NCBI GenBank assembly: GCA_017521465.1
Contig: JAFXCN010000022.1
Location: 1,640 to 65,639 of the forward strand
Length of the DNA: 64,000 nucleotides
Reading direction: 5' to 3'
Source of the DNA: Clostridia bacterium
GTDB lineage: Bacteria > Bacillota > Clostridia > TANB77 > UBA1234
Each line of letters begins with the position of its first letter. Position 1 is the stretch's first letter. The translations under genes and the position numbers were made by a program. This document shows positions 10,822 to 46,084 of this stretch, in pieces. Below the pieces are notes generated by a model. That model saw nothing but the letters and a program-made list of their open reading frames with translations, was not told the DNA's origin and did not search any database.

Positions 10822-10822
10822 T

Positions 10823-11693: not shown

Positions 11694-11719
11694 GGAAATT
11701 TACCTCTCTTTACTCTTCA

Positions 11720-24789: not shown

Positions 24790-24841
24790 ACTATCACCTC
24801 CTAAACCAATTATATTATAAAATAATGAAGTATACAAACAT

Positions 24842-26841: not shown

Positions 26842-27897
26842 TCACTGCTCTTTCAAGATGCAGTCCATGTGTATTTCTGGGCTTTGATTAAATAAAGCAA
26901 AGAATACATCATTTAAAATTGCATTTATTATTGTTATTAAGTTGTTAAAGTTCTTATATTTGCAAGTTATCGTGAATGAATTATCATCATTAAGTTTTGT
27001 TGGAATATTATTGTTATAAAATTCATTCAATAAACTAATAGAAATATCTTCGCAATATAATTCTTTTATTAAAGCATTAGTTGTATGTCCGAATTTTGGC
27101 GCAATTCTATTAAGAGGTGAAACAACATATGCATTTTTTTCATATTTATTCTGAATATCTTTTAAAATGGTCTCTACCGCTTCTTCTAAATTTGTATAAG
27201 ATACGTTTATAGAACATTTTCCTGAATTGTTAAATGTAGTACCTTCAAAATATGTATTTTCATTTATAGATTTACACACTGATGTTAATTCAAATCTTTC
27301 AATATATTCACTTAGATATTTACCAAACTCGTATATGAAGTTTCCTATAATAATACTGTTCGCTTCATTATCCATATCAGATAATTCATAAGAAGTATAT
27401 TGTTTAACATATTCATCAATTGGTTTAAACGGATCAACATCATTAGTAAGCAATTTTATGTATGTAGGAATGTCAAAAACATTTCTCATGTCAATACTTT
27501 TTGAATTACACCATTTTATGAATCCAAATGAATTAAGTGCAAATTTAACCGGTTGTTCCTTTGCAATAAAAGTTGCAATCAAACCCGTACTAACTTTATT
27601 AAGACGAACTATATATGTATTTTTGTCATCAGTTGTGATATATAGTCTTAAAAAATTAGGTGTTGGATGAATACTTATAAATTTACTCGAATCAATTATT
27701 GATAAGCATTCAAGAAAATCTTGATCATCATTTATATATTTAATTGGATTATTAGTATCAAAATCAAATTTAACAGAAGAAAACTCTAATAAAAATTTTT
27801 CGATTTCATCGGGATTTTCAAGAGCTTCAATGTCAGTAACTAAAGATCTTGTTCCACTAAGTCTACCTGAAACAAAAGCTTTTTTAATTTCTTCCAT
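26842..27897 (-). CDS. Hypothetical cytoplasmic protein (351 aa)
   Basis: Good SD GAGGTGA. Only a faint DnaQ/PolA-exonuclease-like pattern (KFDFDTNNP; VKFALNSFGF..NVFDIPTYIKLL), too weak to call. Confidence 0.5.
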   Translation of the reverse strand: MEEIKKAFVSGRLSGTRSLVTDIEALENPDEIEKFLLEFSSVKFDFDTNNPIKYINDDQDFLECLSIIDSSKFISIHPTPNFLRLYITTDDKNTYIVRLNKVSTGLIATFIAKEQPVKFALNSFGFIKWCNSKSIDMRNVFDIPTYIKLLTNDVDPFKPIDEYVKQYTSYELSDMDNEANSIIIGNFIYEFGKYLSEYIERFELTSVCKSINENTYFEGTTFNNSGKCSINVSYTNLEEAVETILKDIQNKYEKNAYVVSPLNRIAPKFGHTTNALIKELYCEDISISLLNEFYNNNIPTKLNDDNSFTITCKYKNFNNLITIINAILNDVFFALFNQSPEIHMDCILKEQ

Positions 27898-27944: not shown

Positions 27945-28016
27945 TTATGTATGCAACAGGTTAAAAGTACTGTGACGCAGCAAAACACACTTCCGTGCAC
28001 AACCAGTGTCTGGCGA

Positions 28017-28268
28017 AAAGTGTCCGCTGAGTGGATATTTGTGTCCGACGTAAAGTGTCCGCTATGTGGACGTTTGTGTCCGACGTAAAGTGTCCGCTAT
28101 GTGGACGTTTGTGTCCGACGTAAAGTGTCCGCTGTGTGGACATTTGTGTCCGACGTAAAGTATCCGCTGTGTGGACGTTTGTGTCCGACGTAAAGTATAC
28201 GCTGTGGGGACATTTGTGTCCGACGTAAAGTGTCCGCTGTGTGGACGTTTGTGTCCGACGTAAAGTGT
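28017..28268. repeat. 35-bp tandem repeat array, about 7.3 copies
   Basis: The TTTGTGTCCGACGTAAAGTGTCCGCTGTGTGGACG unit recurs with TTT at 28038, 28073, 28108, 28143, 28178, 28213 and 28248. There are no unique spacers. Confidence 0.9.
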
Positions 28269-28310
28269 ACAACTAGTTACTATTCACTTTTCACTACTAT
28301 TTATTCACTA

Positions 28311-28337
28311 AAAAAAGCACCCTTTCGGGTGCTTTTT
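28311..28337 (-). terminator. Rho-independent terminator ending the T4SS-like operon
   Basis: Minus strand GCACCC-GAAA-GGGTGC followed by T7, immediately after stop 28338. Confidence 0.85.
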
Positions 28338-31300
28338 TTATGTGTTTGAATTGTTGTTGTTATTTTTGTTCATAAGTCTCTTATACGTTTCTTCAAGTCT
28401 CTTTTTAGCCTGTTCATTCTGTAATTTTGCTTCTCTGTCTCTTTCAAATTGTTGATCTCTTGCAATTTTTTTCTGTAAAAATTGTTCTTTTAATTTGCTT
28501 GACATTGCAGAAGAAATTTCACTACTTGTTAATTGTAATTCGCTATCCGCAAACGTACCAAAAACAGTAACTTCTACTTCTTCCATTTCACCCGTATATG
28601 GATTCCTCATTTTTACTTTCTTTTTGTAACTTTCTCCTGTAGCTGTTTCAGCAACAGTATCTCCTATTGCTGCACCTCCTAAAGCACCTAACAACGCTTC
28701 TGATATCACACTGCCATCTTCGTTTATTCCAATTGCTCCTGCAGCTCCTATAGGTGCCATAAATGCAGCAGCTGTATTAGTTGCAACTGTTCTTGTAAGT
28801 TCTTTTACCCCTTCTTTAGTTTCTACACTAGCCATTTCCATAAGCTCGCTCTTAGTCATGCCGTCTATTTTTCTTTCATGTACACGATTTGTTGCTGCCA
28901 TCATTTCTCTTGAGAAGTCGTTTAATATCGCTTGTGATTCTGTATTCCAATCCTTTCTCTGATTTTTCACGTCAATTATAAATGCTTCTTCCTCTTTCTG
29001 CTTCGCCTCAGCATTATGCAGATTATGTTTTTCTTTATTATAGTTAAGCTGCATTACTTGAGAAACTGTTATAGTTTGTGGACATTTCTCCTCTATTGAA
29101 TTCTCTCCTTCATATTCTTCTAGTACTGCATCTGCCATTTTTCTTGCATCATCTGTTCTACTGCCTTTTTCACCTAAGAACTGTTTCTTCTTACCATTAT
29201 TAGCATTTCTATAATTTTCACCATACGCTTTTCTAGAAATCTTTTCTGCCAACACATGTCTAAAGTCACTAATATCGCATCCCGTGGCAGATGCCATTCG
29301 TTGGAACTCTTTGCTTTCACCTTGATTTCTATATATAAAGTTTGCAGAAGTCATAAGTTCTTTCGCGTCATATTTACCAGATTGTGCATCCTGAATCATA
29401 GCTACGCTCAATGCCATTCTATATTGATCTTTAGTATAATTTTTATTTGCTCCATATATAGAATGAAGCATTTTTGCAGCCTTCTCTGCTAATTCTCTAT
29501 CTGCATTTGCATCTGGTCTATTTTTATCGTCTGCTATATTACTAGTTTTTCTGTCTAGTTTTTCATAGCTCGCTTTTGCTTCTTCAAGTTCAGCGCTGAT
29601 TTCTTCTTTTGAAGTCTCGCGTGAATTGGCTCTTGAATTCATTAACGGTCTTCCTATTTGGGAATATATTGAATTTTTTAATACGTCTATATTTGCTTCT
29701 GGCAATATTCTTTCTAATTCCATTGTCAATTCCATATCTATTTGTTGTTTTGTTTTATTTCCAGAAAGAGCATCTTCCGCTACCGCATTTCTTGCAGCTT
29801 GTAGAGCTTCAAAATCCGAATCAGATATTTTTAAATCTTTCATTAATTCTTTGTATTCGCCTGATTCTTTTGCAGTTTCTACTACATTCATTGCGTGTGT
29901 TATTTGATCTGGTGTCGCATATTCTATATGGTTTAAAACTTGAATAGCATTTCCAACTTCTAAAGCTCCTACATCACCAAACTCAGTATATTCCGGTCTA
30001 AAATGTTCTAACGCCGCAGCATCCGGCATTCTATATTCCTTAGGTTTTTCACCTATTACATCTACAAGTTCTGCTTTTTTTCTATATAGATTTCTTTCAG
30101 AAAAATGCGAAATAGTTCTTCCTAAATGGCTGTTTGCTCCAATAAAGTTGTCACCAATACGTTTTGTTGTTTGTTTTACTGCAGTTGCTACCGCAAATGC
30201 TTGTGTTGCTGTTGCTGCAAGTGATTTCGCTGACTCTGCTTGTTGTCCTAAAATCTTCTTCAATATTTCTTCACCGTTAAATAGGAATGTTACCCCAACT
30301 AACATCAATATCCAATCATTTTCCGCGTTTCCAGCTGCTAAAACTGTTGCAATTGAGAATGAATATATGATCGCATGAATTGACTGAATAAATATATTAA
30401 CTAATATTTCTCTCGTCCATTTTGCAAATGCACCTCCCGTTTTTACATCTGCCACTTTTTCTAAAATATGTGCTATCATTACTAACGGGAATAGCACAAT
30501 CAAGAATGATACTATGAATAAACGTTTATAGTACATCATTGCCATTATTAATAGTTGGAATGTCATTATTAAATATACAAAAGCGTACGATAATCTTCTA
30601 GTAACATGCGCTCTTCTTGACATTACAGCCATATATCCAGTATCATTTTCTCCAAATGGGTTTTTTTCCATTCTTTTTGCTTCTTCACTTGTAAGTTCTT
30701 CGTCTGTTATCAAAGTTGAATCATCTGGAGCAATATATTCTCCCGTAACAATAGATGTATCTAAATCTGGTTTCCCAACAATAGCTTGTTCAACCATGTC
30801 AACAAATAAAGAATTTATTTTTATTGCATACTTTATTACATATGGGAATGTAAACAAAATAATAACTCCTGCTACCCAATGCATAAACAATTCTTTATAT
30901 ATTGCTTGTTTAGCTGCAGTTGAATTTAAAACAATTCTAATAGCCATATATAATAGAATTAATAAATATGCAACTATTGCTATAAGCATAAAATTACTAT
31001 GCCAATTATTTATAACTTCTACAAATAGTTTTATAAAATCATTTGTTTTTTCACCCGCTTTTAAATTGCCTGAAAACAAAGTTAATTGTGTTAATGGATA
31101 ATTATCAAAAACTATTGCATCTATAGAAATTTTTTCTTGTGTTTGTGTATTAGGATCTTCATATCCAAGTACAGAATCAAGCATTAAAACAAGTCCATTT
31201 GCAATGTTTCTTACAAAAAAAGAAATTAAAAATTCTAATCTTTCAAAAATTGTAAAACTTTCTCTCCCTCCAACGTGATATTGCTTGAAATTTTGCGTTT

Positions 31301-33095
31301 TAAAGTTAAAAACTTCATGATTGTAAATTTCTGCTAAATCATTATTCAAATAATTAAATTCAAAATCCCAATTATCTATATTTATTAATCCTTTATCTGG
31401 TTCAAGCATATAATCATTTACATCCAATACATATATTATTCCTTTTTTCAATGGATATGTAATATAAGGATCTGATGAATAATATAATCCGTTCTCAAAC
31501 TCCTGCACCTTACAATCTGGATCAGGGCATTTCCCTTCTCCTTTTTTTCCAGCATTTAATATTGCACCCGACATATCATGTATATTACGTCCTAGTACTC
31601 CATCAATATCTACTGTTGCAATATAAAGAGAAAAAGTTTCAATTTTACCATAATCTCGTTCAAACGTTTTTACTTTTGGCGTCATAATATACGTTCCATC
31701 TTTGTTCACTGTAAACAAGACTTCACCACGATCATTTTTTTCATAACTTATTGATCTGTTGCTTCTTAATGTTTTGACATCGCCTATGGCATTGAATTCT
31801 AATTGATATACTCCTTCAGGAGGTTCAAGAGTAACATTTAAAAAGTCTTGTAATGTCGGCATAGTTCCATCTTCGGCTTCTTCAACAAGTTGTGAAAAAC
31901 ACTCAATATATTTTTCATTTGCACCATTAATTTTTTCAATACCATTACTTAATGGTATTGAATATATTCTCATTTTTTCAGCACTATCTTTTGGTTGGAT
32001 AAATATATTAATATATAAAGAATGATTTTTTTGAATTATGTATTCATGTGCCCAATTTGTATATCCATACTCTCTATAATCGTCAATATCTAAACGATTA
32101 GTATAGAACAATTCAAATTTTTTATTTACTGTGGATGTTTCTGTCTTTCTTATTTTTGTAGTTATTTCATCATCTTCTGGTCCTAAAGTACGAAAATTTC
32201 CACTATCTGCTTTAAATTCTAATTTTAGTAATATATCGCCTTCTATATTATTTATACTGCCATATTCTGTTATAGCACCTTTTCTTATAGCCTTGGCTAT
32301 ATCAACTGGTGTAACCGTGTTACCCGACGATTTATTTGTAAATACTATATTTAAATTTTCCAAACTAACTTCTAGTTCCAATTCATCTAAAGCATTTTTT
32401 ATAGTCGCTGCATCTATTTCAATATTTTTAGCATCAAATTTACTCGTCACCCCAGGCATACTGTTTAATGTACTTTGAGAAATTCTTGCCACATCATACA
32501 TAGTATCTTTTAGTGGCTCTGCATCTGTAACAACAATACTTCCACCTTTGAAACATGCAAACTCTCCATTACCTAAATATATATATGTATCATAAATTTT
32601 CCAGCCAGTCCAAGCCATATCTATTAGAATATCTCCTGGTTCTAATAAGTCCGGAACAACTTTAAATTCGGCATCTTTATCATATATTATCTTTTCACCT
32701 TCAAAAGCTTTGGTAAAATATCTACAATTCGTTTTACCTGGATGGCACAAATTATTATAAATGTCATATTCTGAAAAGATTTTTTCGCCATCTTTCATAT
32801 TCATATTTCCTTTTGATACCTCTTTAAACACATAAGATACAAATGAGTCGTCAGTAAAAAACATTGCAGTAGTACCAATTTTTTCAGACATAACAGTTTC
32901 ATTATCATAAGAAATTATAGCTCTATCATCTTCTATTTTATCTGCTTGAAGAAATCTATCATTATATTTTTGCATATCCTTTACAAATGAAGTAATAGCG
33001 GTTTGAAATTCTTTTCTTTCAACAGCTAACACATTAGAAGGAAGAAGCGCTAATAATGTAATTATTAGCATACATATTAAATTGCATTTTTTCAT
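28338..33095 (-). CDS. VirB6/TrbL-position polytopic protein, paralog 5 of 5 (1585 aa): about 690-aa ectodomain, conserved TM core, about 650-aa tail
   Basis: Signal peptide MKKCNLICMLIITLLALLPSNVLA. Core motifs QAIYKELFMHWVAGVIILFTFPYVIKY, MYYKRLFIVSFLIVLFPLV, WTREILVNIFIQSIHAIIY and FLFNGEEILKKILG are shared with the four upstream paralogs. Confidence 0.7.
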   Translation of the reverse strand: MKKCNLICMLIITLLALLPSNVLAVERKEFQTAITSFVKDMQKYNDRFLQADKIEDDRAIISYDNETVMSEKIGTTAMFFTDDSFVSYVFKEVSKGNMNMKDGEKIFSEYDIYNNLCHPGKTNCRYFTKAFEGEKIIYDKDAEFKVVPDLLEPGDILIDMAWTGWKIYDTYIYLGNGEFACFKGGSIVVTDAEPLKDTMYDVARISQSTLNSMPGVTSKFDAKNIEIDAATIKNALDELELEVSLENLNIVFTNKSSGNTVTPVDIAKAIRKGAITEYGSINNIEGDILLKLEFKADSGNFRTLGPEDDEITTKIRKTETSTVNKKFELFYTNRLDIDDYREYGYTNWAHEYIIQKNHSLYINIFIQPKDSAEKMRIYSIPLSNGIEKINGANEKYIECFSQLVEEAEDGTMPTLQDFLNVTLEPPEGVYQLEFNAIGDVKTLRSNRSISYEKNDRGEVLFTVNKDGTYIMTPKVKTFERDYGKIETFSLYIATVDIDGVLGRNIHDMSGAILNAGKKGEGKCPDPDCKVQEFENGLYYSSDPYITYPLKKGIIYVLDVNDYMLEPDKGLINIDNWDFEFNYLNNDLAEIYNHEVFNFKTQNFKQYHVGGRESFTIFERLEFLISFFVRNIANGLVLMLDSVLGYEDPNTQTQEKISIDAIVFDNYPLTQLTLFSGNLKAGEKTNDFIKLFVEVINNWHSNFMLIAIVAYLLILLYMAIRIVLNSTAAKQAIYKELFMHWVAGVIILFTFPYVIKYAIKINSLFVDMVEQAIVGKPDLDTSIVTGEYIAPDDSTLITDEELTSEEAKRMEKNPFGENDTGYMAVMSRRAHVTRRLSYAFVYLIMTFQLLIMAMMYYKRLFIVSFLIVLFPLVMIAHILEKVADVKTGGAFAKWTREILVNIFIQSIHAIIYSFSIATVLAAGNAENDWILMLVGVTFLFNGEEILKKILGQQAESAKSLAATATQAFAVATAVKQTTKRIGDNFIGANSHLGRTISHFSERNLYRKKAELVDVIGEKPKEYRMPDAAALEHFRPEYTEFGDVGALEVGNAIQVLNHIEYATPDQITHAMNVVETAKESGEYKELMKDLKISDSDFEALQAARNAVAEDALSGNKTKQQIDMELTMELERILPEANIDVLKNSIYSQIGRPLMNSRANSRETSKEEISAELEEAKASYEKLDRKTSNIADDKNRPDANADRELAEKAAKMLHSIYGANKNYTKDQYRMALSVAMIQDAQSGKYDAKELMTSANFIYRNQGESKEFQRMASATGCDISDFRHVLAEKISRKAYGENYRNANNGKKKQFLGEKGSRTDDARKMADAVLEEYEGENSIEEKCPQTITVSQVMQLNYNKEKHNLHNAEAKQKEEEAFIIDVKNQRKDWNTESQAILNDFSREMMAATNRVHERKIDGMTKSELMEMASVETKEGVKELTRTVATNTAAAFMAPIGAAGAIGINEDGSVISEALLGALGGAAIGDTVAETATGESYKKKVKMRNPYTGEMEEVEVTVFGTFADSELQLTSSEISSAMSSKLKEQFLQKKIARDQQFERDREAKLQNEQAKKRLEETYKRLMNKNNNNNSNT

Positions 33096-33113
33096 TATCA
33101 GCTCTCCTTTCTT

Positions 33114-36100
33114 TTAAGAATTATTTGTTTCTTCATCGTCACCACTACCAGTACTACTATTTCTCGAACTTCTCGATAAGCTTTGTCTTAATCTTTCACG
33201 ATTTTGCTCTATTCTTTCTAATTGCTGTATTTTTTCATCAATTTCTTTCATTCTAGTAGCTTGTTGTTGATTTATTTGCTGTTTTATCGGATTTTTTTCT
33301 AACTTTACAGTTATAGTTTCAACACCTTGTTGATTATCATCTGCAAAAATTAATGTACTAAATAGTTTTCTTGCTATCTCACTAGAACCTTCTGTGGTTG
33401 TTGTATCAGCGTTTTTCGCAACATCTCTCATTCCTGAAATTTTATCAGCAACTCTTTCAACTCTTTTACTTGTAAAATCTACAGCTTTATTTTTTACGGT
33501 ACTACTAATATCTGAACCAAACTTTCCTGCCGCTATAGCATTCTTAACGCTATACTCTCCACTCGCACCCGTAACCATTGCTGCTGATGCTAGACCAGTT
33601 ACTGTTGTAACCAATGGTGCCGAGGCTGTTTTTATAGCCGCACCTGTAAATTCTAATCTTTCCTGAAATAATTTAGTTCTCATCATTTCAACAGAATCTG
33701 CATCCGTTAAAGCATTTCCTACCGCAGCCCTATTTTTAGCAATTTCCTTTTTCATGTCTGATTGAATTGTTTGTACCTCTTGTTTAACAGAACCACCCTC
33801 ATGGATAGAGATTATCTCAATTCCGTTTTTCTTATCCCTTTTCACACCTATTCCATGATCATCTATTATATTTTGGTATACTGCATCTTCTTTTTTCTCC
33901 GCCCTCAATTCTTCTGCTCTTTCTTTCAATACTTTTTTTGCTTCTTGTTCAAATGTTGCGGCCTCATGTTCATTACTATTCTTCGCCAAAACTTTTTTAT
34001 TCTTAACTACTAATGCGGCAACCTGTTCATCAAAGCCTTCCGGTTTGGCAGTTTTTGAATCTCCTTGTGCTACTTCAAGTATTTTCTTAATACCTTCATC
34101 CTTATCTTCTTTCTTTTTAGCTTTTCTAACAGTTTTAGTCGCTTCCCAAATTTCTTCCAAAGTATAGTTTCCAGAATCACTACCATCTAAAACAGCTTGT
34201 GCTTCAGCCAACTCTGCTTGTTCGTCAGAAATCATTCCTCCATTTGCTCTTTGCGCTTCTAATCTGTATTTTGCAACTTGTGCACCTTTATCATAATCTT
34301 TTTTCTTTAAGTCTTTTGTTGTTAGGTTTTTATTAGTTAAGGTTGCTTCAATTGCTTTCTTTTCTTCACTTATTTCAAATAATCTTCTTCTCTCTGCATA
34401 GCTTAACCCATTAGCTTGTAAACTTGCAAGACTTCTATTATTACTCTCTTCGTATTCATCTAGTTTTCCAAGTTCTCTTCTATATTCTGCAATTTGAGCA
34501 TCTATCGAAGATTTTTTCCCTTTTTGTTTTTTCTTTCCTGTTACTTTCAAATCTCTCTCTAGTCTAGAAATTTTTCCTTCAAGTTCTGCACGTTTTGCAT
34601 CAATCGCAACTTTGTTTTTTTCTAATTTTGTCTGCTTATCTGTTATTTCTTTAGCTTCCCTTTCTAATCTTCTTATTTCAAATAATCTTGCTCTATCCTG
34701 TTTTGTACAAATAGAACCTCTTATCTTGTTCAAATTAGCTTCTTGAGAACCTGTCAACTCTCTTGCCTGTATTTTTCTAAGTAATTGATCTTGCGCTTTA
34801 TTAGTAAGTCCGTTCTTGTTTAATTCTGCATTTAATTTTTCAAAATTTCCACCTTTTCTTCTATTTTTTACTAAAACATTTAAGTTTGCATTTATTTCTG
34901 CTTCAGCCATTTGATCTAAATTTTGCATTGCATCAACTGCATCACTTTGATCCATTAAATCCATTAACTCATTATATCTTTCTGGATCTTCGCTTTGTAA
35001 TTGTCTCATTTTTTCTTCATATCGCGCTTGTGTTTCACCACCAGCCATTGAAGCTTGTCTTAAAGCGCCTACTGATTGTTGTATTCTTTCAGCTGAAGAT
35101 CTCTTATCCAACACAGTATCAATATCATTTGATATCCTTTGGTCCGTTTGGGCCGTTTCACCACCACGTTGTCCTGCTGATTGCACCGACCTCAAGTTCC
35201 ATTCATCCCATTTGTCATTTGCTTTTCTCTCAGAAAGCTTCGTAGACATATTCTTCATTTCTAATCTTTTGTCACTTAAATTCTTAACATTTTTAATTCC
35301 TTTACCTATAGTTGCAGCACTATCTCTAACCATATTAACTACACCCATTGTAGCAAGCATACTTTCTGCAACGTCTTTTACAGTTCCGCCGCCGCCACCT
35401 TTCATATGAGAGAATATTCCTCTCAGAATCTTATCACCTTGTGCTAAATATGTAAGACCTATAATAATTAAAATAAAGTTTGTCTGTCCTGATGTTTTTC
35501 CAACAGCAAATATAATTCCCATTACAACAACATAATTTATTGCATGGAATAATTGTAAAAATACATTAAGTATATATTCTTTAACCCAGTTATTAAACGC
35601 TTGTGATTTTCCATCACCAATTTTATCGATTGCATACGATATAGTAACCAGCGGGAATATAACAATCAAAAACATCGTTGTTAATAATCTTTTCATATAT
35701 ATTATTAAGAATGATATCAGTTCTTTTAACATTAAAAGCCAACATAATGCGTACAAAATTCTTCCTGTTTCTAAAGCAGTTTGTCTCATAATACTCATAT
35801 AGTCTAATGATGCTACGCCATCAGAACCAACATAACTAAATGGAAATGCTAGTCCACCGGGGTAATCTATTATTTCTGCTTCCTCTATGTTACTTGCAAC
35901 ACCACTTCTTAATGATCCAACATAACCAACTAGTGCATTATTAATTTTTATAGTATATCGCATAACATATGGGAAAAGAAATAAAATTAAGATACCGCCA
36001 ACCCAATCTGCAAATAATTTTTTGTATTTAGCCATATCTCTACCTGTGCTTGAAAGAACAGTTCTTATTCCCATATATAGCAGCATAACAACGTATACAA

Positions 36101-37010
36101 CAATGGCTATTAGCATAAATCTATTATAAAACTTATTTAAAGTTCCTTCATTTGAACCCTTTGGAAGTAACCCTGTATCTGCTAAAAATGGGTTGATTTT
36201 ATTTTGATCTTCCACCCCATTCTCATCCACTATATCATTAACAAAAAATGCTAATCTTGTTCTACTATATTCATTAAATAATATCTTATCAATTGTTATT
36301 GGTTCGCCAGCAACAACTCCAATAAGAAACATTATTCCATCTCCAATAACATCAACAAAAAAACTTGTTAATAATTGTTGTACAAAATCAGCCTTTTGCT
36401 CTCCACCTAAAATCTCATATTTTTTTGCATTGTTAGGAGGATCCTGCAAATCATTTTGTTGACCATTCTTCATTGCATTTTCAAAATATAACTGCATCTT
36501 GTTAAGATCATCTATTGCATTTTTCGCCTTATCTTTTTTTGCCTCATAATATTTTCCATCTTCATTTTCAATTGGCGACGAAAGCCTTACTGTTATATAA
36601 TTTTCGGCCGTTGAAGCCTCAGTAACCAACTTATTTTTTTGGTTTTGGCTGTATAATTTTAAATTATATGTTTTACCTTCCATTAAAAGAACATAAGGAA
36701 TGTCATCTGAATATAATTTATAAATCGGTTCGTCTTTATCATTTACACCATCTTGAACGAGAGCCAAATTTAAATTTTCTCCTGACGTACTTATAGTGTA
36801 CTTCCATTCGTAACCTTCGATAACTGGTAAAAGTGTGATTGAATATATTCCTGTTTTATCTATTTCAAAATCAACTCCACTTATATACTGCGATTTTGTT
36901 ATAGAATTTGTTCCAGGAACAAATTTTATTGCTGCAAAAGAAGGTGATGTGCATAGCATCATAATTATTATTGTAAATATTAATATTCTTTTTAGAAATT
37001 TATTTTTCAT
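33114..37010 (-). CDS. VirB6/TrbL-position polytopic protein, paralog 4 of 5 (1298 aa): ectodomain, TM core, long coiled-coil tail
   Basis: Start at ATG 37010 after GAGGAGGG. Core motifs MAKYKKLFADWVGGILILFLFPYVMRY, IYMKRLLTTMFLIVIFPLV, WVKEYILNVFLQLFHAINY, YLAQGDKILRGIFS. The tail is rich in K/E/R heptad-like sequence. Confidence 0.7.
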   Translation of the reverse strand: MKNKFLKRILIFTIIIMMLCTSPSFAAIKFVPGTNSITKSQYISGVDFEIDKTGIYSITLLPVIEGYEWKYTISTSGENLNLALVQDGVNDKDEPIYKLYSDDIPYVLLMEGKTYNLKLYSQNQKNKLVTEASTAENYITVRLSSPIENEDGKYYEAKKDKAKNAIDDLNKMQLYFENAMKNGQQNDLQDPPNNAKKYEILGGEQKADFVQQLLTSFFVDVIGDGIMFLIGVVAGEPITIDKILFNEYSRTRLAFFVNDIVDENGVEDQNKINPFLADTGLLPKGSNEGTLNKFYNRFMLIAIVVYVVMLLYMGIRTVLSSTGRDMAKYKKLFADWVGGILILFLFPYVMRYTIKINNALVGYVGSLRSGVASNIEEAEIIDYPGGLAFPFSYVGSDGVASLDYMSIMRQTALETGRILYALCWLLMLKELISFLIIYMKRLLTTMFLIVIFPLVTISYAIDKIGDGKSQAFNNWVKEYILNVFLQLFHAINYVVVMGIIFAVGKTSGQTNFILIIIGLTYLAQGDKILRGIFSHMKGGGGGTVKDVAESMLATMGVVNMVRDSAATIGKGIKNVKNLSDKRLEMKNMSTKLSERKANDKWDEWNLRSVQSAGQRGGETAQTDQRISNDIDTVLDKRSSAERIQQSVGALRQASMAGGETQARYEEKMRQLQSEDPERYNELMDLMDQSDAVDAMQNLDQMAEAEINANLNVLVKNRRKGGNFEKLNAELNKNGLTNKAQDQLLRKIQARELTGSQEANLNKIRGSICTKQDRARLFEIRRLEREAKEITDKQTKLEKNKVAIDAKRAELEGKISRLERDLKVTGKKKQKGKKSSIDAQIAEYRRELGKLDEYEESNNRSLASLQANGLSYAERRRLFEISEEKKAIEATLTNKNLTTKDLKKKDYDKGAQVAKYRLEAQRANGGMISDEQAELAEAQAVLDGSDSGNYTLEEIWEATKTVRKAKKKEDKDEGIKKILEVAQGDSKTAKPEGFDEQVAALVVKNKKVLAKNSNEHEAATFEQEAKKVLKERAEELRAEKKEDAVYQNIIDDHGIGVKRDKKNGIEIISIHEGGSVKQEVQTIQSDMKKEIAKNRAAVGNALTDADSVEMMRTKLFQERLEFTGAAIKTASAPLVTTVTGLASAAMVTGASGEYSVKNAIAAGKFGSDISSTVKNKAVDFTSKRVERVADKISGMRDVAKNADTTTTEGSSEIARKLFSTLIFADDNQQGVETITVKLEKNPIKQQINQQQATRMKEIDEKIQQLERIEQNRERLRQSLSRSSRNSSTGSGDDEETNNS

Positions 37011-37028
37011 ACACATCCCTCCTCTTCT

Positions 37029-40000
37029 CTAATGATTATCATTTTCTTCCCTGATAACTGTCTTTCTCCTTGTTGTTTTGTGCAACGTTTTTGTTCCTTT
37101 AATCTTGGTTTTAGCCATTTTTCCATCATTAGTTGCCTTCTTATTAACACGTTGTTGAACTGGTTTAGGTGCCTTTTTATATTTTTGGCCGCCCGGCATA
37201 TTTTGAGTTTTTTTTGCTGACGGCAAAGCTGCATTTGGCTTTTGTTGTTTCTTTTCTTGTGGTTTTTTACTTGTTCCGCCAACAAGTTTTTTTACACCAC
37301 TTCCAACAGCAGCACCTTGAGCAATTCCATTAATCATATTTCCTTTTCCAGCAGCAACAATAGCATTTGTTGCTCCTGACATTACTCCAAATGAAAGTCC
37401 AGCAAATTTTCTTGCATTTCTTGCTAGTAACTTAAATGCTTTTCCAGCATTACGAAGCCCTGGATCTCTAGAAATTCCTTTGATTTTTCTTCCAACATTA
37501 CCAGCATGATACATTCCGTTTCTAACCATGCTTGCTGCATTAACAGTTTTTAACCAAGCTTTCTTTGCAGCCCCCGCATTTTTCATTTGCTGTTGTCTTC
37601 TTTGAATATTAGTATCACGAGTTCTCTTTTGTCTATCTGCAACAGCCTGACGTTTTCGTGCTTTCGCATCTTTTGCTTTGTATTCTTTATCGCCAAATTT
37701 TTGCCATTTCTCTCCCATAGTCTTTTTTAGGTGTTGCTTTCTACCACCAACAGCTGTCTTAAATCCATCACTTTTGATATTTTTGACCAAACTTTTTGTG
37801 CTTTTTACTCCTTTAGCTGCAAGTTTACCGCCTTTAAAAGCAGCTCTTCCTATCATAAGACCAGCAGCAAATCCACCCGCAACGTTAGCATTTAATGAAC
37901 TTATTGTACTTCCATTCATTCCAAATATTGATCTTAGTAATCTTTCAACTGGGAATAAGCATAACACTGCTATTATAAAGAATAACCAATTTTTAGGGTT
38001 TGCTTCATAAAAGCTTAGTCCTGTTTGGATTAATGTTACATATACCACTGCATGTGCTATTTGAACTGTTATATTTAAAATAAATTCTTTTGCCCAAGTT
38101 TCAAATGTTTGTGCTGAACCATCTCCTATTTTATCTATTGCATATGTGATCATAACAATTGGGAATATCATTATTAATATTGCAACCATAATTATTCTTT
38201 TGTAATACAAACCTACCAATGTGAATAATTGGAAAAATAGTATGTACCACACAAGAATATATGCTAATCTTCCTGTTTTTCCAGCTTTTACTTTCATTTC
38301 TGACATTAAGTCTTTTGTTTCCGAGTATGAATTTAAAGTATTAATTTCACTTTCTAACTTACCACATTTTAATTGTTTTTCTCTATACTCATTTATAAAA
38401 GCAAGAGACTCTCTTACTGGGTAAACTGTAGTTTCTTTACAAGCATCTGAATGCTGCATTATATATGTATACTCCCCTGTTGGCATTTTAGCACATCCTG
38501 GCGGTGAACAATTAGGACGTTTTGCAACATCTAGGAATAATGCCCACTTATCTTTAAAACTGTCTATTCTATTTTCAAATTCTACCTCATTAGCAGGTGT
38601 CCATGATGCACGCAAAGTTTCTACATAACTTGTTATAGCGTTTATATCTTTCTTTAAATCTAATTTTGCTTTTGCTTCGCTCTTTTTTCTTTCCGCTTCT
38701 TCTTGAGTATATTTTCCTTCTGCTACCCAACCATCATACATATCATCAATAAGATTATGAATATGCTCCGCATAATTCATTATAATATTATGTCTCACAT
38801 TAAGTTCATCTTCTAAAGCCGCAATTTCTGTTAAAGCTTGTGTTTTATCATTTTCTCTTACCTCGATGCCCGCTTTTATTTTCTCATCAAGCATTTTAGT
38901 ATCAGCATCTTCTCCTAGTAATGAATCATCTCTTAATATCGATGCAATATTATACTGTGTTACATATGGAGTAACTGAAGAACCAATATATCCAACAATA
39001 ACATTAGATATATCTGTTATAAATGGGAAGAACTTCGGTAGCAAGAATAGGAGAATTACGCCAACAACCCAATTTTGCAAATTTTTAATATATTTAGCTT
39101 GCTTTTGTCCTCCAACATTAATTACAATTTGTATTCCTAAATATAGCAATATTACTATATTAATAACAATTGCTACACGTTCAAAGCCACTGTACATATA
39201 ATTGATAATTTCACTTACTTCTTTATATGCAAAAACGCCCATTCTTCCTCTAAAATCTATTATGGTCATTTTGTATCTATTAAAAATCAGGGCATCCATT
39301 GATAAATCATCACCTAAAAATGCTTTTACAACGGCCATAAACACACTACCAATTCCATTTAGTAGTTTAGTTATTGCCATTTCAATTACTCCAGCTTGTT
39401 CTTCAGGTTCAATTTCATTATTTACAAAATGATATTTTATTTCAACAGTATGCTTTTCTTGTTCTTTTATATTAGACTCTGTTTTTGCACCGCTGTATGT
39501 ACCAAATCTAATGACTTCAGTCGGATAATTATTATAATTAAAATTTGGGTTAAGTATTTTTCTAAGCTGAGCCCAACGTGGAACATTTGAATCTATGACA
39601 AAATCCGCAATTCCATCTGCATATCTTATGTGTTCATATTCTGAATTATCACAAATCTTTTTACTCGTCTCTTCATAAAATTCTTTAACGGTACCTTTGC
39701 ACTTTGCAAACACAAAATAATTAAGATCTTGTACATATAGATTTCCACTATTCGGTCTAAATGTGTTCTTTAAAATATGAGTGTTTTCTTTATTTCTTTT
39801 ACCCTCTTGAAATTCATTAAATTTCCACTTTACTGTACTGCCCGTTGGTTTTTCTTCCGCATAAATTGAAAATTTACAATCTTTTTTTTCTGGTTCAATG
39901 GCAGTTCCATCCGGTATCGCTATTGCACCAGCTTGTACATAAAAGCCCTCTCCACCATTTCTTGGATAATAGATTTCTCTATTGCCATTTATGTATGTTA

Positions 40001-40292
40001 TCCTAACTTTTTCAGCATTCTTATCATGTTCTACGCCATATGTACCAATACCATTTGATTCATCTATTTTAAACCAAAAATCTTCTTTGTTTTTAAAATC
40101 TATTTCTATATATTTACCACTACCACCCTGTGTAGTTGTAGCATAATTAAAGTTTAAAACATAAGGATTATTTTGAGTGCCCTTTCCTTCAACCGCAACA
40201 TTACCCGCATATACTGTAGTATAAAGAGATAGTAAAATAGAAAAAGTCATCATTAAAAAATATATAATTTTTATTTTATTTTTTTTCATCAT
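37029..40292 (-). CDS. VirB6/TrbL-position polytopic protein, paralog 3 of 5 (1087 aa): large inter-TM loop and very basic tail
   Basis: Core motifs QAKYIKNLQNWVVGVILLFLLP, LYYKRIIMVAILIMIFPIV, WAKEFILNITVQIAHAVVY, ERLLRSIFG; C-terminal about 300 aa is rich in K/R/G/A. Confidence 0.7.
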   Translation of the reverse strand: MMKKNKIKIIYFLMMTFSILLSLYTTVYAGNVAVEGKGTQNNPYVLNFNYATTTQGGSGKYIEIDFKNKEDFWFKIDESNGIGTYGVEHDKNAEKVRITYINGNREIYYPRNGGEGFYVQAGAIAIPDGTAIEPEKKDCKFSIYAEEKPTGSTVKWKFNEFQEGKRNKENTHILKNTFRPNSGNLYVQDLNYFVFAKCKGTVKEFYEETSKKICDNSEYEHIRYADGIADFVIDSNVPRWAQLRKILNPNFNYNNYPTEVIRFGTYSGAKTESNIKEQEKHTVEIKYHFVNNEIEPEEQAGVIEMAITKLLNGIGSVFMAVVKAFLGDDLSMDALIFNRYKMTIIDFRGRMGVFAYKEVSEIINYMYSGFERVAIVINIVILLYLGIQIVINVGGQKQAKYIKNLQNWVVGVILLFLLPKFFPFITDISNVIVGYIGSSVTPYVTQYNIASILRDDSLLGEDADTKMLDEKIKAGIEVRENDKTQALTEIAALEDELNVRHNIIMNYAEHIHNLIDDMYDGWVAEGKYTQEEAERKKSEAKAKLDLKKDINAITSYVETLRASWTPANEVEFENRIDSFKDKWALFLDVAKRPNCSPPGCAKMPTGEYTYIMQHSDACKETTVYPVRESLAFINEYREKQLKCGKLESEINTLNSYSETKDLMSEMKVKAGKTGRLAYILVWYILFFQLFTLVGLYYKRIIMVAILIMIFPIVMITYAIDKIGDGSAQTFETWAKEFILNITVQIAHAVVYVTLIQTGLSFYEANPKNWLFFIIAVLCLFPVERLLRSIFGMNGSTISSLNANVAGGFAAGLMIGRAAFKGGKLAAKGVKSTKSLVKNIKSDGFKTAVGGRKQHLKKTMGEKWQKFGDKEYKAKDAKARKRQAVADRQKRTRDTNIQRRQQQMKNAGAAKKAWLKTVNAASMVRNGMYHAGNVGRKIKGISRDPGLRNAGKAFKLLARNARKFAGLSFGVMSGATNAIVAAGKGNMINGIAQGAAVGSGVKKLVGGTSKKPQEKKQQKPNAALPSAKKTQNMPGGQKYKKAPKPVQQRVNKKATNDGKMAKTKIKGTKTLHKTTRRKTVIREENDNH

Positions 40293-40309
40293 TACTATCT
40301 CCTTTCCTT

Positions 40310-42736
40310 TTAATTGTTATTATTATTTTTTCTTATATCAGCAATTTGCTTTAGCATTCTTAATTCTCCAGCTCTTTTGCCCCTAGTTGTCGATCTGCCA
40401 CCTAATTCTGCTAATGCTTTTCTAAACATTTCTTGAGTTTCTGTATCTAATGATGCCATATCAAGTCCTGCATCTCTAAATTCTTTATCTAAGTCACCGC
40501 TCATTATTTTTTGTTTTAATCTATGTCCCCTATATAAATTACTAATTCCTTTAATCGGTGCTCTCACAACTCCAGTTACAGTTTTTCCAACCGCTTTTCC
40601 TGCAACAGCAAATCCAACAGCTTTTCCAACATCACCCGTCGCTAATCCTGCTGCAAGTCCAACTGTTGCACCAACTGCACTACCAACATGTCCAACAGCC
40701 TTACCAATTTTTCCTGCAACACCTCTGCCTTTTCTAGTTTTTTGTCTTTGTCTTAGCGCTTGTCCTATTACTACACTTTGTGCGCGTGCAAAAGCTGCAT
40801 TTGGATCATTTGTTATTTCTTCTGGTTCAGTTCTTGGGCCTTCTTCTTGTTCGGTATTTCCAGCATCTCCTGAACCTCCTCCAGAACCATTAGAATTTCC
40901 AGAGTTGCCTCCTCCTGAAGAACTTGTAGTTTGCGGTCTACTTCCCGAAGCTGCCTTTTCATCAGCTTCTTTTATCTGCTTATCCTCGTCATTTTCGCCT
41001 TTATCTCCAGCAAACAATTTCTTAGCTGTTCCTAGTACTGCATATCCTGCAGCACCTGCTTTTGCTAAATCTCCAATTGTATTAGCACTTGACTTCATTC
41101 CAAATATTGAACGTAATATTTTTTCACCTTGAAACAAAAATATTACGCATAAAAGCATAAATAACCAGTTATCTTGCTCTATGTATACTTGAACACCAGC
41201 ATTAACTACAACTACATAAACCGCCGCATGAAATGCTTGTGTAAATACTAAAACTACATATTCTTTTAACCAAGTAGAAAAAGCTCTTGAACTACCAGAT
41301 ATTAATTTTTCTACTATATACATAATTGCTATAATTGGAAAAATAGTAATTAAAAATCCCATCATAAATACTCTTTTATAATATACAAAAATAATTACTA
41401 TTAATTCACCTAGCATGACGTAGTATACAAATGTTAATGACATTTTTCCTAGGTTAGCAGCTAATTCTCTAATATAAAGCATCATATCTCTCTTTGCTGC
41501 TGCATCTGATGGCTCAAATGGTTTCCCTTTTATAGAATTTACGAAATCTGCTTCACCGAATGAAGCCGATGCATTATCTAATGTAGTTTGATCTATTTCA
41601 GGAGTAGCTTCTGGTTCTTGAATTTGTACTGATTCCAAGTCTGTATTTATCATTTCAACAAGTAAATTGTTTAATAATAATGTATATTTCATAACGTATG
41701 GAAATAAGCATAAAATAACAACTCCAGATAGCCACGCTTGTAACACGTCTTTGTATTTCGCTTTTTTGTCTCCAGTACTTGAGAAAACTATTTTTATCCC
41801 TACAATCAACAAAGCTACCATGTACACGACAACTGCTATTGCAAAAAATACCGAATACCAATCATTTACTACAGGTTTCATAATTGACATTACACTATTG
41901 GCTTGTTCTGTGTTGGTATTAGTACCTACCGCTGTGTCTTCCCAAAAGTTTATACTAAGTTTACCAACTCTTCCGAAAATAACTTTATCCATTGTAACTG
42001 GTTCTCCCACTGCTGAACAAACAACAGAAAGAATACCATCAGCCAATGCTATAAACAGTTTGTTTACTAGCGATTCAATTAAATCTTTAACTTTATTCAA
42101 TGTGTCTGTAAGCCAACGCCAAAAAGCAGTCCAGCCGTTTTCTTCCATTGAATTTTGACTTATTTCTGAAAAAGTACTAGAAACTAACCATTTTTCATTT
42201 AAAATTTGAACTGTTTCTTCAACGCTTTCGGATCCAATATCAATACTAGCTTTGAAAAACATTGGTTTTTTTTCATATTCAGATAAATTACCAGCTACCT
42301 CTAATAAATATCCATATTTACTTTCACCTGCATTAAAATTATTTGCTGCCTGCCTCTTCAACAAACTCCTTGTTTGCTCAACACCATTTTCATCATCATA
42401 TTTTGTATAAAGATTTAATTTTATTTGATTTTCTTCAACTTCACTTGTCTCCTCATTATATGTTTGCATAAAAAAAGTAATTGAGCCAGAAGCACTGTAT
42501 TTGTATATTATTCTAGGGTAATCAGTTTTTTCTATTGGTAATACTATTTTCATAAACACAGCATTGTATGTTTTGGTATCATCTTTGTATGAAAATTCAT
42601 AAAATTTTTCTCTGGTAGGAATGAGCTCAATATTCTCTAACCAACTTGCTAATTCTTCACTTGGATTATTGCTAGTTGCATATGAAATTTTCCCCAACGT
42701 TATAAAAGGTAATATTATAAAAATCAATATTAACAT
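40310..42736 (-). CDS. VirB6/TrbL-position polytopic protein, paralog 2 of 5 (808 aa): ectodomain, TM core, Gly/Ser-rich then Gly/Lys-rich tail
   Basis: Core motifs KAKYKDVLQAWLSGVVILCLFPYVMKY, VYYKRVFMMGFLITIFPII, WLKEYVVLVFTQAFHAAVY, FLFQGEKILRSIFG. The true start may lie upstream at a non-ATG codon (see findings). Confidence 0.7.
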   Translation of the reverse strand: MLILIFIILPFITLGKISYATSNNPSEELASWLENIELIPTREKFYEFSYKDDTKTYNAVFMKIVLPIEKTDYPRIIYKYSASGSITFFMQTYNEETSEVEENQIKLNLYTKYDDENGVEQTRSLLKRQAANNFNAGESKYGYLLEVAGNLSEYEKKPMFFKASIDIGSESVEETVQILNEKWLVSSTFSEISQNSMEENGWTAFWRWLTDTLNKVKDLIESLVNKLFIALADGILSVVCSAVGEPVTMDKVIFGRVGKLSINFWEDTAVGTNTNTEQANSVMSIMKPVVNDWYSVFFAIAVVVYMVALLIVGIKIVFSSTGDKKAKYKDVLQAWLSGVVILCLFPYVMKYTLLLNNLLVEMINTDLESVQIQEPEATPEIDQTTLDNASASFGEADFVNSIKGKPFEPSDAAAKRDMMLYIRELAANLGKMSLTFVYYVMLGELIVIIFVYYKRVFMMGFLITIFPIIAIMYIVEKLISGSSRAFSTWLKEYVVLVFTQAFHAAVYVVVVNAGVQVYIEQDNWLFMLLCVIFLFQGEKILRSIFGMKSSANTIGDLAKAGAAGYAVLGTAKKLFAGDKGENDEDKQIKEADEKAASGSRPQTTSSSGGGNSGNSNGSGGGSGDAGNTEQEEGPRTEPEEITNDPNAAFARAQSVVIGQALRQRQKTRKGRGVAGKIGKAVGHVGSAVGATVGLAAGLATGDVGKAVGFAVAGKAVGKTVTGVVRAPIKGISNLYRGHRLKQKIMSGDLDKEFRDAGLDMASLDTETQEMFRKALAELGGRSTTRGKRAGELRMLKQIADIRKNNNNN

Positions 42737-42799
42737 CGTTGATAACTTCTTTATTAAATTGTTTTTTATAATATCACCCCCTTCATATACTTCTATTTA

Positions 42800-44044
42800 T
42801 TATTTTTTACCAGGTATAGCTCTCTTTATATTTCCTGCTGCACCTTGAATCTTTCCTTTTATTGCTTTTCCTGTACCTCCGATGCCTTTATCTGTACCAG
42901 TATCTACTCCTAATAATTTTCTAATGATTTTTTCACCTTCTGATATAAAGTTTATAGCAACAATTATTATAATCCAATTCATTTTATCTGCTGAAGATTT
43001 TATATCTGCTTGAACCCTTGAAATTGCAACACTGGCAATTATAGCATATATAACCGCATGTACTGATTGAATAAATATATTCACAAACATTTCTTTTGCC
43101 CACGCCGAAAATACTTGACCAGTTTTTCCTCTAAGAATATCAATAATATAAAACATTGTAACTAAAGGAAATACAATAAAAAGTATTGCAATTATGAAGT
43201 ATCTTTTATAATACTTAATTACTAAAACAATTAATTGTGAGAACAAAATCATCCATATTATTGCATATATCGCTTTTTTGGTTATTCCTGCATACGCTCT
43301 CATTATTCTAGCCAAATCTGCTTCACTTTTATAAGCGTCTAGTGATTTTTGATAAATTACATTAGCTTCATGTCCACCTAAATTTGTGCTACCTGTAAAT
43401 CTAGAAACATATTCTGGACTTCTAAATTCTATTTCTTCAGTGCTCCATTCACCTTCTGTAGTTCCTATTCTTGTTCCCGCTTCATCTTCTCCATTATAAT
43501 TTTTAGCAATCATACTAACTATGCCTTCATTTAATTCAAATGCATATTTTAATATTACATTTGGAAACAAAAATAATAACAATACTCCCGCAAGCCATTT
43601 TACAGCAAGTTCTTTTAATTTTTCCATTCCTCCAGCAGTACTTCCTAATACTACTTTTATTCCCATTCCTAAAAGAACTATTAAATATGTTGCTATTGCT
43701 AGAGTCATGAAAAAACTATACCAGTTATTTATCTGGTCTCTCATAATTTCGGTTGTAGCATTATTTATTGTTAAATCTTCGTTAAAAAAGTTTGGATCCA
43801 AAGAAGGAGTTTTATTGAACAACAATTTTTGAATTGTAACTCTTTCACCAACAATTTCATTAAGCATATTAGTTGCAAAATCACATACGCTAAGATACAA
43901 GTCTGTTACTGCCTCATCTAAAGCATTTGATTCATCAACTTTGTATCCACTTATCTCTATATCAGCATAAACAACAGGAGGCATTATATTAATAGCCATA
44001 ATTAGTGAAACAAAAAATATTAATGCCACAGCTATTTTTTTCAT
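42800..44044 (-). CDS. VirB6/TrbL-position polytopic protein, paralog 1 of 5 (414 aa, minimal form)
   Basis: Signal peptide, short ectodomain, core motifs MEKLKELAVKWLAGVLLLFLFPNVILKY, IKYYKRYFIIAILFIVFPLV, WAKEMFVNIFIQSVHAVIY, FISEGEKIIRKLLG; directly follows virB4. Confidence 0.7.
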   Translation of the reverse strand: MKKIAVALIFFVSLIMAINIMPPVVYADIEISGYKVDESNALDEAVTDLYLSVCDFATNMLNEIVGERVTIQKLLFNKTPSLDPNFFNEDLTINNATTEIMRDQINNWYSFFMTLAIATYLIVLLGMGIKVVLGSTAGGMEKLKELAVKWLAGVLLLFLFPNVILKYAFELNEGIVSMIAKNYNGEDEAGTRIGTTEGEWSTEEIEFRSPEYVSRFTGSTNLGGHEANVIYQKSLDAYKSEADLARIMRAYAGITKKAIYAIIWMILFSQLIVLVIKYYKRYFIIAILFIVFPLVTMFYIIDILRGKTGQVFSAWAKEMFVNIFIQSVHAVIYAIIASVAISRVQADIKSSADKMNWIIIIVAINFISEGEKIIRKLLGVDTGTDKGIGGTGKAIKGKIQGAAGNIKRAIPGKK

Positions 44045-46057: not shown

Positions 46058-46084
46058 TTTCATTCCTCCTATCTTTCGTTCTTC

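Follow-up and report, generated by a model that had tools for sequence, protein, structure and literature searches.

Five tandem paralogs with a probable VirB6-type core in a chromosomal pilus-type secretion operon of uncultured Clostridia

At the centre of their type IV secretion systems (T4SSs), both R388 VirB6 (TrwI) and DotA are pentameric, and Gram-positive VirB6 homologs have been modelled as pentamers that template VirB2-like pili (PMC12857230; bioRxiv 10.64898/2025.12.18.695078). What VirB6 does and what the extended VirB6 proteins are for have been named as open questions in the T4SS field (PMC12857230), and the retention of five VirB6 paralogs by Rickettsia has been unexplained since 2009 (PMC2653234). 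VirB2-like pilins in monoderms were described in a 2025 review as unique to Patescibacteria, and a late-2025 preprint reported PrgF-type pilins on Gram-positive plasmids. Here, we analyzed a 64,000-nucleotide stretch of contig JAFXCN010000022.1 from a Clostridia bacterium (assembly GCA_017521465.1), called the window below. Its minus-strand operon runs from VirB2-like pilin genes through a gene for ~120 aa, a TrsD-like gene and a VirB4-like gene to five consecutive paralogs, P1 to P5 (Table 1). No description of this five-paralog array was found in the searchable literature, and the proteins are named hypothetical at NCBI.

With a probability of about 0.55, we read this operon as encoding one chromosomal T4SS of the pilus type, without a relaxase, in which the five paralogs assemble together and plausibly make up a hetero-pentamer. 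The locus adds a monoderm example, of independent origin, in which the paralog count has stayed frozen at exactly five across a deep radiation, a number equal to the known stoichiometry of the VirB6 ring.

The shared core and its resemblance to VirB6

The five genes lie consecutively on the minus strand with intergenic gaps of 12–63 nt. A core of ~360 aa was recovered in all ten pairwise BLASTP comparisons of their products (29–36% identity, 28–39% per aligned segment, E 1e-26 to 1e-57), a similarity far above chance; in P3 it is split by an insert of ~220 aa between hydrophobic helices 2 and 3. Hydropathy and the AlphaFold2 (AF2) model placed the long helices of P1 at residues 96–133, 137–184, 258–305, 310–349, and 357–377, making the core polytopic with about five or more hydrophobic helices. 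The positions of the open reading frames (ORFs) and the ten BLASTP pairs thus bore out the original prediction, made from the sequence alone, of five tandem paralogs with one conserved polytopic core. All five shared motifs that it had listed were visible in the alignment of the five cores, where the constant residues include Y-K-R of YYKR, FP, W.KE, Q..HA..Y, and W..G; across 43 family members, Y278, K280, and R281 (YYKR), P293, W315, Q326, and Y333 are invariant (P1 numbering). The first segment of each protein resembles a signal peptide, as had also been claimed, and has YA, FA, or LA at its end; the sizes given earlier for the ectodomains and tails were judged to match on re-measurement.

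The apparently pilin-like first transmembrane (TM) hairpin is a part of the core that the earlier reading had missed. The hairpin was compared with the pilin families PF18895 and PF04956. Pfam T4SS_pilin matched TM1–TM2 in four of the five window proteins (P2–P5) at 16.7–23.4 bits, below the 26.6 cut-off, and reached E ≤ 1e-3 in 33 of 45 diverse relatives, with 5e-8 as the best value, scores that the composition of TM segments may inflate. An hhalign comparison of the operon's own pilins with the core gave a probability of 80% (E 1.4e-5) over 66 columns spanning TM1, the loop, and TM2, and comparisons of these pilins with PrgF and TrwL were null or weak. These matches suggest that the TM1–TM2 hairpin resembles a VirB2 pilin; its topology would also be that of the pilin, with the N-terminus outside and the basic loop inside. 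A hairpin of this kind at the N-terminal side of a VirB6-type protein bears on how pili nucleate.

Several observations connect the core with VirB6. The AF2 model of P1 (pLDDT 73.8, pTM 0.70) was submitted to Foldseek, and chains of R388 TrwI/VirB6 were the top four of 350,542 PDB chains (probability 0.87–0.99). The sole NCBIfam matches of the cores were the VirB6-like families of mycoplasma integrative and conjugative elements (ICEs), NF045889 and NF045848 (E 1e-8 to 5e-8, nearly the full model being aligned), with best scores of 34.8 and 32.7 bits, below the thresholds of 70 and 90. Among the relatives, a few matched TrbL_4 at 23.4 bits (cut-off 27) or TrbL at E 6e-4, likewise sub-threshold. 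Gene position speaks for VirB6 as well. VirB4 homologs on Clostridium plasmids share 41–42% identity with the VirB4 of the operon, and on a Clostridium beijerinckii plasmid TrsD and a 42%-identical VirB4 are followed by one 896-aa protein, with a coupling protein encoded nearby. This protein matches the C-terminal half of the core hidden Markov model (HMM) at E 1.6e-12, and its single copy fits the earlier statement that described Gram-positive systems carry one VirB6-like gene. At the level of motifs, hhalign of the core with R388 TrwI weakly placed the invariant F..W.KE of the family on TrwI FDQWAQQ (P 0.035); TM segments are involved here too, and their composition can inflate the score.

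Other results weigh against a VirB6 assignment and, through it, against the reading proposed above. The Foldseek E-values (0.04–0.15) are weak, with TM-scores of 0.33 and 0.45. No VirB6/TrbL sequence model reaches its curated threshold, and the five window proteins are without a match to the Pfam TrbL/VirB6-type profiles; homologs carry precomputed PF19590 (TrbL_3) labels, which scans with local Pfam failed to reproduce and which were not relied on. The hhalign comparison of the core with pCF10 PrgH was null (E 0.32, probability 0.2%), and a PDB sequence search with the family profile returned nothing relevant. The predicted VirB6-like scaffold stands in part: the position after VirB4, the TrwI fold match, and the mycoplasma and TrbL matches speak for it, and the thresholds and PrgH against it. 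We consider it highly probable that the P1–P5 core works as a VirB6-type subunit; formal membership of the VirB6/TrbL family is unproven.

The missing threshold match would also fit an unrelated polytopic family that merely adjoins T4SS genes, for example an envelope or glycan transporter tied to the nearby glycosyltransferases. Two distant single-copy members of the core family (L023 and L025; 798–825 aa, 10001–12478), from another lineage of ~30% GC, point the same way: their neighbours are PBP5, VanW, a glucosaminidase-like gene, and mutS, and neither VirB4 nor pilin was detectable within 10 kb. Such an origin is nevertheless very improbable, as the core genes hold a constant position after VirB4 in the window and 19 related loci, the plasmid relative is placed likewise beside a type IV coupling protein (T4CP), TrwI is the top fold match, and the mycoplasma VirB6-like models are the only NCBIfam families matched.

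Gene number, add-on domains, and the proposed machine

At E ≤ 1e-3, the search with the core profile returned 4,188 representative sequences, of which 2,321 reached E ≤ 1e-30; all are metagenomic, and they are 347–2,218 aa long. A metagenome scan with the P3 orthologs gave four loci, and word-indexed homolog searches were shallow for P5 and the core profile. Altogether, 22 related loci were recovered from gut, rumen, and Hadza metagenomes and from metagenome-assembled genomes labelled Clostridia or Eubacteriales. Their gene order is constant: pilins (2–5 copies), the ~120-aa gene, the TrsD-like gene, VirB4, and the core genes. A core gene directly follows VirB4 in the window and in 19 related loci, that is, in every locus covering the gene upstream of position 1. 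Exactly five core genes were counted in each of the nine complete arrays (the window and L009–L016), and the genes present in 12 further, truncated arrays fit the same order.

In the neighbour-joining tree of 46 cores, five clean clades were formed, one per gene position, which makes the five-fold duplication older than the radiation of the sampled lineage; recent diversifying duplication was rejected on this tree. The diversifying family of the original prediction was not supported by this survey, in which count, order, and ancient positional orthogroups are all fixed; the five-subunit scaffold appears to be frozen, and only the add-on domains seem to turn over. The predicted rise in size along the operon holds in the window (414 to 1585 aa) and is common but not universal among the relatives, as two arrays break the order (L013, 425/776/1227/1646/901 aa; L014, 428/647/1117/1308/1196 aa at positions 1–5). 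The earlier proviso that such arrays might be common in ordinary conjugative elements found no support: tblastn with P1 gave no match in 72,556 plasmids, and no relative of P1 was found in viral contigs. In three relatives from different samples (the complete array L016, 8732–11297, and the truncated arrays L008, 6086–8453, and L022, 3644–6200), two ORFs stand in place of the position-2 paralog. The break separates the half of the core with the pilin-like hairpin from the half with YYKR and may be a true gene fission, not an assembly error.

The regions outside the core are less conserved. Identity between the window and L001 is 63–81% in the cores, 48–54% in the ectodomains, and 47–55% in the tails, and the corresponding values for L009 are 48–72%, 28–39%, and 35–46%; by these alignments, ectodomains and tails appear to evolve about twice as fast as the cores. 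In more distant relatives, add-on domains differ in size or have been exchanged: the ectodomain of P5 has 611 aa in the window versus 31–305 aa elsewhere, and that of P4 has 205 aa versus 45 aa in L013. Tails fall into length classes by position (~10 aa at position 1, ~240–280 at 2, ~160–380 at 3, 520–1,250 at 4, and 500–820 at 5). The claim that nothing is common outside the core was too strong. Each P2–P5 tail carries a Gly/Ala-rich segment of small residues 80–130 aa before the C-terminus, which recurs in most positional orthologs and was found in P2–P5 only among the 32 minus-strand ORFs of at least 200 aa in the window. Ectodomain modules are also similar across positions in relatives (window P4 N-terminus versus L012 position 1, E 2e-8).

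This pattern could be produced by five alternative homo-oligomeric VirB6 rings sharing one VirB4 motor, the variants differing in surface specificity or cargo, in line with the alternative specificities suggested in the original prediction. The ectodomains and tails do differ among the paralogs and evolve faster than the cores, the pilin arrays at the same loci also resemble variant sets, and single-copy relatives exist, so the core presumably can homo-oligomerise. Variant sets, however, usually gain and lose members, whereas all nine complete arrays keep five genes in ancient clades with position-specific tail classes. Moreover, pilin copy number floats and the core-gene count does not, and the genes are tightly packed in one operon in which no internal terminators were found between P1 and P5. 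We regard alternative homo-oligomeric rings as unlikely.

One ectodomain could be given a predicted fold. The N-terminal part of the P5 ectodomain was modelled by AF2 with a pLDDT of 72.7, and Foldseek matched the model to 4xcm_B (probability 1.00) and LytE (probability 0.95, TM 0.52), fold matches suggesting an NlpC/P60-like fold at the start of the ectodomain. Sequence searches of Pfam and PDB gave no match for this part; the P5 ortholog profile against PDB gave a coiled-coil chance match only, and an hhalign alignment of P5 with the C40 peptidase of pCF10/Tn916 was discarded as a spurious, uninformative TM alignment. On visual inspection, Asp stands where the catalytic Cys would be expected and Asp/Thr where His would be (FFTDDSF; YDTYIYLGNGEF), with DDSF in place of the expected DCSG and D-T-Y-I-Y in place of H-x-G-I-Y. 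Since these positions are replaced, the domain is probably a non-catalytic, wall-binding module. No other Pfam domain was detectable in ectodomains or tails across 45 relatives. The loop charges fit the positive-inside rule (TM1–TM2 loop and YYKR basic, TM2–TM3 loop acidic, P3 tail strongly positive). Judged from this charge pattern and from the classical VirB6 topology, the tails are probably cytoplasmic.

Add-on domains of such size could also mean that the channel proper is built from just one or two of the paralogs, the others using the core as an anchor for adhesins, pilus-base or pilus-tip parts, or secreted, cleaved tails. The pilin-like hairpin could dock into the VirB2 polymer, and the huge Pfam-dark ectodomains and tails resemble the extended VirB6 proteins, whose extensions are without known function (PMC12857230). 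All five cores, however, keep the same invariant residues with similar conservation (61–72% between the window and L009), none looking degenerate; no processing site or secretion signal was identified; and the Gly/Ala-rich element common to the P2–P5 tails suggests a shared structural role over diverse effectors. We consider this division into channel and anchor proteins quite unlikely.

Co-assembly of the five paralogs in one machine is our preferred reading. Five ancient copies that were never lost are most simply understood as being needed together, and since VirB6 homologs are pentameric and the copy number is fixed at five while pilin number floats, a hetero-oligomer with all five is the most likely arrangement. 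Co-assembly as such and a 1:1:1:1:1 stoichiometry are purely inferred. An ancestral single extended VirB6-like gene would have been duplicated four times before the host lineage, uncultured gut/rumen Clostridia of ~30% GC, radiated; all copies would have been kept in fixed order and the system inherited vertically, and the ancestral state might still be seen beside the related VirB4 on the Clostridium plasmid. Each subunit would consist of a Sec signal peptide, a variable ectodomain, a conserved pre-TM helix, the pilin-like hairpin with its basic loop, an extracellular loop, a second hydrophobic module (YYKR, W.KE, Q..HA..Y), and a position-specific tail. The ectodomains may handle wall crossing and contact, with the P5 fold binding peptidoglycan, probably without catalysis, and the tails may dock the VirB4/TrsD motor and substrates. 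As no separate VirB1-, VirB5-, VirB8-, or T4CP-like gene is present at the locus, we infer that the add-on domains would fill those roles. The function would be non-conjugative. The hetero-oligomer, plausibly with one copy of each protein, would form the pentameric base for pilin polymerisation.

A stricter version is offered tentatively: the VirB6 ring would be an obligate hetero-pentamer in which every paralog occurs once and in fixed cyclic order, so that five different subunits replace the C5-symmetric base. Each position would bring its own ectodomain for wall spanning or contact and its own cytoplasmic tail for docking, and the pilin-like hairpins would form the first layer, onto which the VirB2 pilins polymerise. 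Such a machine would be a Firmicutes counterpart of the Patescibacteria T4SS, i.e., a chromosomal, non-conjugative contact or uptake organelle.

Further points stand on the opposing side. Anaplasmataceae keep four VirB6 paralogs, not five (PMC12857230; PMC7648143), so the number of paralogs and the size of the ring may differ. The absence of T4CP and relaxase applies to the 64-kb window and the 10-kb flanks of the relatives. If the proteins were arranged like TrwI of R388, with just two N-proximal helices crossing the membrane, the tails could lie outside the cell. The hetero-pentamer idea becomes testable with this family, as the ~2,300 representative sequences at E ≤ 1e-30 allow residue co-evolution to be followed, and a ring of this kind, if true, would explain in a testable way why Rickettsia has five RvhB6 proteins. 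The apparently pilin-like TM1–TM2, the Gly/Ala-rich element of the P2–P5 tails, and the predicted NlpC/P60-like fold of P5 are features newly found here.

The operon and its chromosomal surroundings

VirB4 is encoded as two pieces (44081–47386), an arrangement as in pGO1/pSK41-type plasmids and Patescibacteria loci. The ATPase part scored 200 bits with NCBIfam conju_CD1110 and 178 bits with VirB4_plasma; neither score reaches its cut-off, and each match is confined to the C-terminal portion of the model. The 433-aa protein matched positions 48–238 of VirB4_plasma at E 3e-7 and TrsD weakly (E 0.012), and its orthologs carry PF26593 (TraC-like). The ~120-aa gene, without a Pfam match, is kept at the same place in every locus covering that position (L001–L006 and L008–L016). 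VirB2-like pilin arrays occur on a Firmicutes chromosome, in 2–5 copies that vary among the relatives. P1 starts 36 nt after the VirB4-like gene, and the strong hairpin at the end of P5 is likely the operon terminator. A promoter scan was uninformative (93 sites found versus 92 expected).

Table 1. Features of the operon and its surroundings in the window
Feature	Position	Strand	Length	Description
P1	42800-44044	-	414 aa	Signal peptide, short ectodomain, VirB6-like core 42830-43939, ~10-aa basic tail
P2	40310-42736	-	808 aa	Ectodomain ~213 aa, core 41015-42097, tail ~234 aa, Gly/Ala-rich segment 40553-40738
P3	37029-40292	-	1087 aa	Ectodomain ~296 aa, core 37848-39404, TM2-TM3 loop insert ~220 aa at 38313-38972
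P3 tail		-		Very basic, net charge +57; Gly/Ala-rich segment 37269-37430
P4	33114-37016	-	1300 aa	Ectodomain ~205 aa, core 35319-36401, charged tail ~734 aa (a coiled coil in the earlier reading), Gly/Ala-rich segment 33507-33647
P5	28338-33095	-	1585 aa	Ectodomain ~611 aa, core 30168-31262, tail ~609 aa, Gly/Ala-rich segment 28626-28814
P5 NlpC/P60-like fold (predicted)	~32451-32918	-		Motifs FFTDDSF 32841-32861, IYLGNGEF 32559-32582
VirB4-like ATPase	44081-46063	-	660 aa	C-terminal ATPase part only; Pfam P-loop_TraG, AAA_10, DUF87
TrsD/TraC-N-like protein	46085-47386	-	433 aa	Separately encoded homolog of the VirB4 N-terminal domain
Conserved gene	47403-47765	-	~120 aa	VirB3/PrgI position
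VirB2-like pilin genes (three)	47987-48316, 48369-48716, 48727-49080	-		Pfam TrbC and T4SS_pilin on two of three; pilin HMM recovers all three
Terminator candidate	28309-28340			G+C-rich hairpin with A and T runs on either side; overlaps the P5 stop codon
Downstream neighbour	26842-27897	-	351 aa	Cytoplasmic-looking, no Pfam match
35-bp repeat array	28006-28268			7.5 head-to-tail units, 92% identity
Spurious ORF	27961-28272		103 aa	
553-aa membrane protein, GT2 glycosyltransferase, GtrA-like protein	49172-51764, 55014-55481			Upstream of the pilin array
Stretch of ~42% GC	57000-62000			Background ~30%
Multi-zinc-ribbon protein	57187-58779		530 aa	
Adenylosuccinate synthetase gene	59067-60365			
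PilT/PilB-type T2SSE ATPase	2364-3461		365 aa	
ORF adjoining tmRNA gene	24373-24837		154 aa	

The operon is flanked downstream by truA, the tmRNA gene, lexA, ctsR-mcsA-mcsB-clpC, ffh, rimM, trmD, and ABC transporters and upstream by glycosyltransferases, tRNA-Met, tRNA-Gly, and purA; the remaining scanned ORFs of the window are housekeeping or without a family match. Integrase, relaxase, and coupling-protein families had no match among the scanned ORFs, and VirB8–11 and VirD4 were likewise not found among the window genes. Next after P5, the window has an ORF of ~350 aa, and five of the seven relatives with a listed downstream flank have one of similar length and N-terminal sequence there; truA-like ORFs were recognisable in three of those relatives and the window. 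These neighbours, kept downstream, argue for vertical inheritance at a fixed chromosomal site. A recently integrated island, conceivable with tmRNA and tRNA-Met genes flanking the region, was rejected: there is no integrase, the GC content (~30%) is uniform over the locus and flanks, and the ~350-aa neighbour, with truA where recognisable, is kept in distant relatives. The 351-aa protein may be functionally tied to the T4SS or merely syntenic.

Several other features of the surroundings were recorded. A head-to-tail array of the 35-bp unit GTGTCCGACGTAAAGTGTCCGCTGTGTGGACGTTT separates the terminator of P5 from the promoter-like region ahead of the following gene; the unit was found nowhere else in the window, and the array accounts for the spurious 103-aa ORF. 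The 553-aa membrane protein and the GT2 glycosyltransferase upstream of the pilin array form a pair that is syntenic in close relatives, so glycosylation of pilin or surface is possible; the upstream gene of L006, a possible ortholog of the 553-aa protein, is weakly PMT_2-like. The stretch of higher GC, with the multi-zinc-ribbon protein and adenylosuccinate synthetase genes, may have been acquired horizontally. The PilT/PilB-type ATPase points to a type IV pilus or competence-type system as a further apparatus of the host. The ORF adjoining the tmRNA gene gave a weak phmmer match to the window VirB4 (E 2.4e-6) that is probably compositional.

Comparison with known systems

The earlier comparison with RvhB6 was apt, as Rickettsia carries five paralogs with divergent flanks (PMC2653234). 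The Rickettsiales rvh system and the present locus have in common tandem VirB6-like paralogs conserved across the group (RvhB6a–e, five in Rickettsia; VirB6-1 to -4 in Anaplasma/Ehrlichia), a conserved VirB6 core with large divergent flanks, duplication of VirB2 and VirB4 genes, and a chromosomal and, here presumably, non-conjugative setting (PMC2653234; PMC12857230). The layout of extended VirB6 proteins is seen here in tails of 234–734 aa, ectodomains of up to 611 aa, the ~220-aa insert of P3, and five tandem copies. The rvh system, however, is a diderm P-type apparatus with VirB8–11 and VirD4 whose proteins match Pfam TrbL/VirB6, whereas this locus belongs to a monoderm Clostridia host, has a split TrsD/TrsE (MPF-FATA) VirB4, lacks VirB8–11 and VirD4, and encodes cores below the TrbL thresholds. 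These differences argue for a VirB6 expansion independent of that in Rickettsiales.

The Patescibacteria T4SS resembles the locus in having VirB4, TrsD, a small gene at the VirB3/PrgI position, VirB6-like genes, and arrays of divergent VirB2-like pilins (PF18895), and in being chromosomal and usually without relaxase (PMC12102498; PMC12857230). Given this gene repertoire and the lack of relaxase and coupling protein in the window and flanks, the system resembles the Patescibacteria T4SS more than a conjugation apparatus. The hosts differ: the present one carries ctsR-mcsA-mcsB-clpC, and NCBI labels the related contigs Clostridia or Eubacteriales. The sources refer to a single essential virB6 gene in Southlakia and mention no five-gene VirB6 array, although no search aimed at a copy-number statement was made; in the present lineage, five are fixed. 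Chromosomal relaxase-less T4SSs with VirB2-pilin arrays are thereby extended from Patescibacteria, whose systems a 2025 review regarded as unique among monoderms, to a Clostridia lineage common in gut and rumen metagenomes.

The VirB6 homologs of Gram-positive conjugative systems (PrgH of pCF10, the extended TcpH/ConG type, and the post-VirB4 gene of pGO1/pXO1/pCLJ-like plasmids) are likewise polytopic, adjoin VirB4, and are predicted to form a pentameric base for VirB2-like pilins (bioRxiv 10.64898/2025.12.18.695078), but are single-copy and reside on mobile elements with T4CP and relaxase. The CDS16-type proteins of mycoplasma ICEs (NCBIfam Mbov_0396 and MMCAP2_0566), likely VirB6 components (PMC12857230), are the only curated families that match the cores (17–35 bits versus cut-offs of 70–90) and also adjoin VirB4 (Mbov_0397 family); they differ in being single-copy, ICE-borne, and ~300 aa long without large add-on domains. 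Altogether, the closest analogue of the locus is rvh of Rickettsia, whereas in gene content it comes nearest to the T4SS of Patescibacteria and to the Firmicutes plasmid systems of the TrsD/TrsE type, which have a single gene in the VirB6 position.

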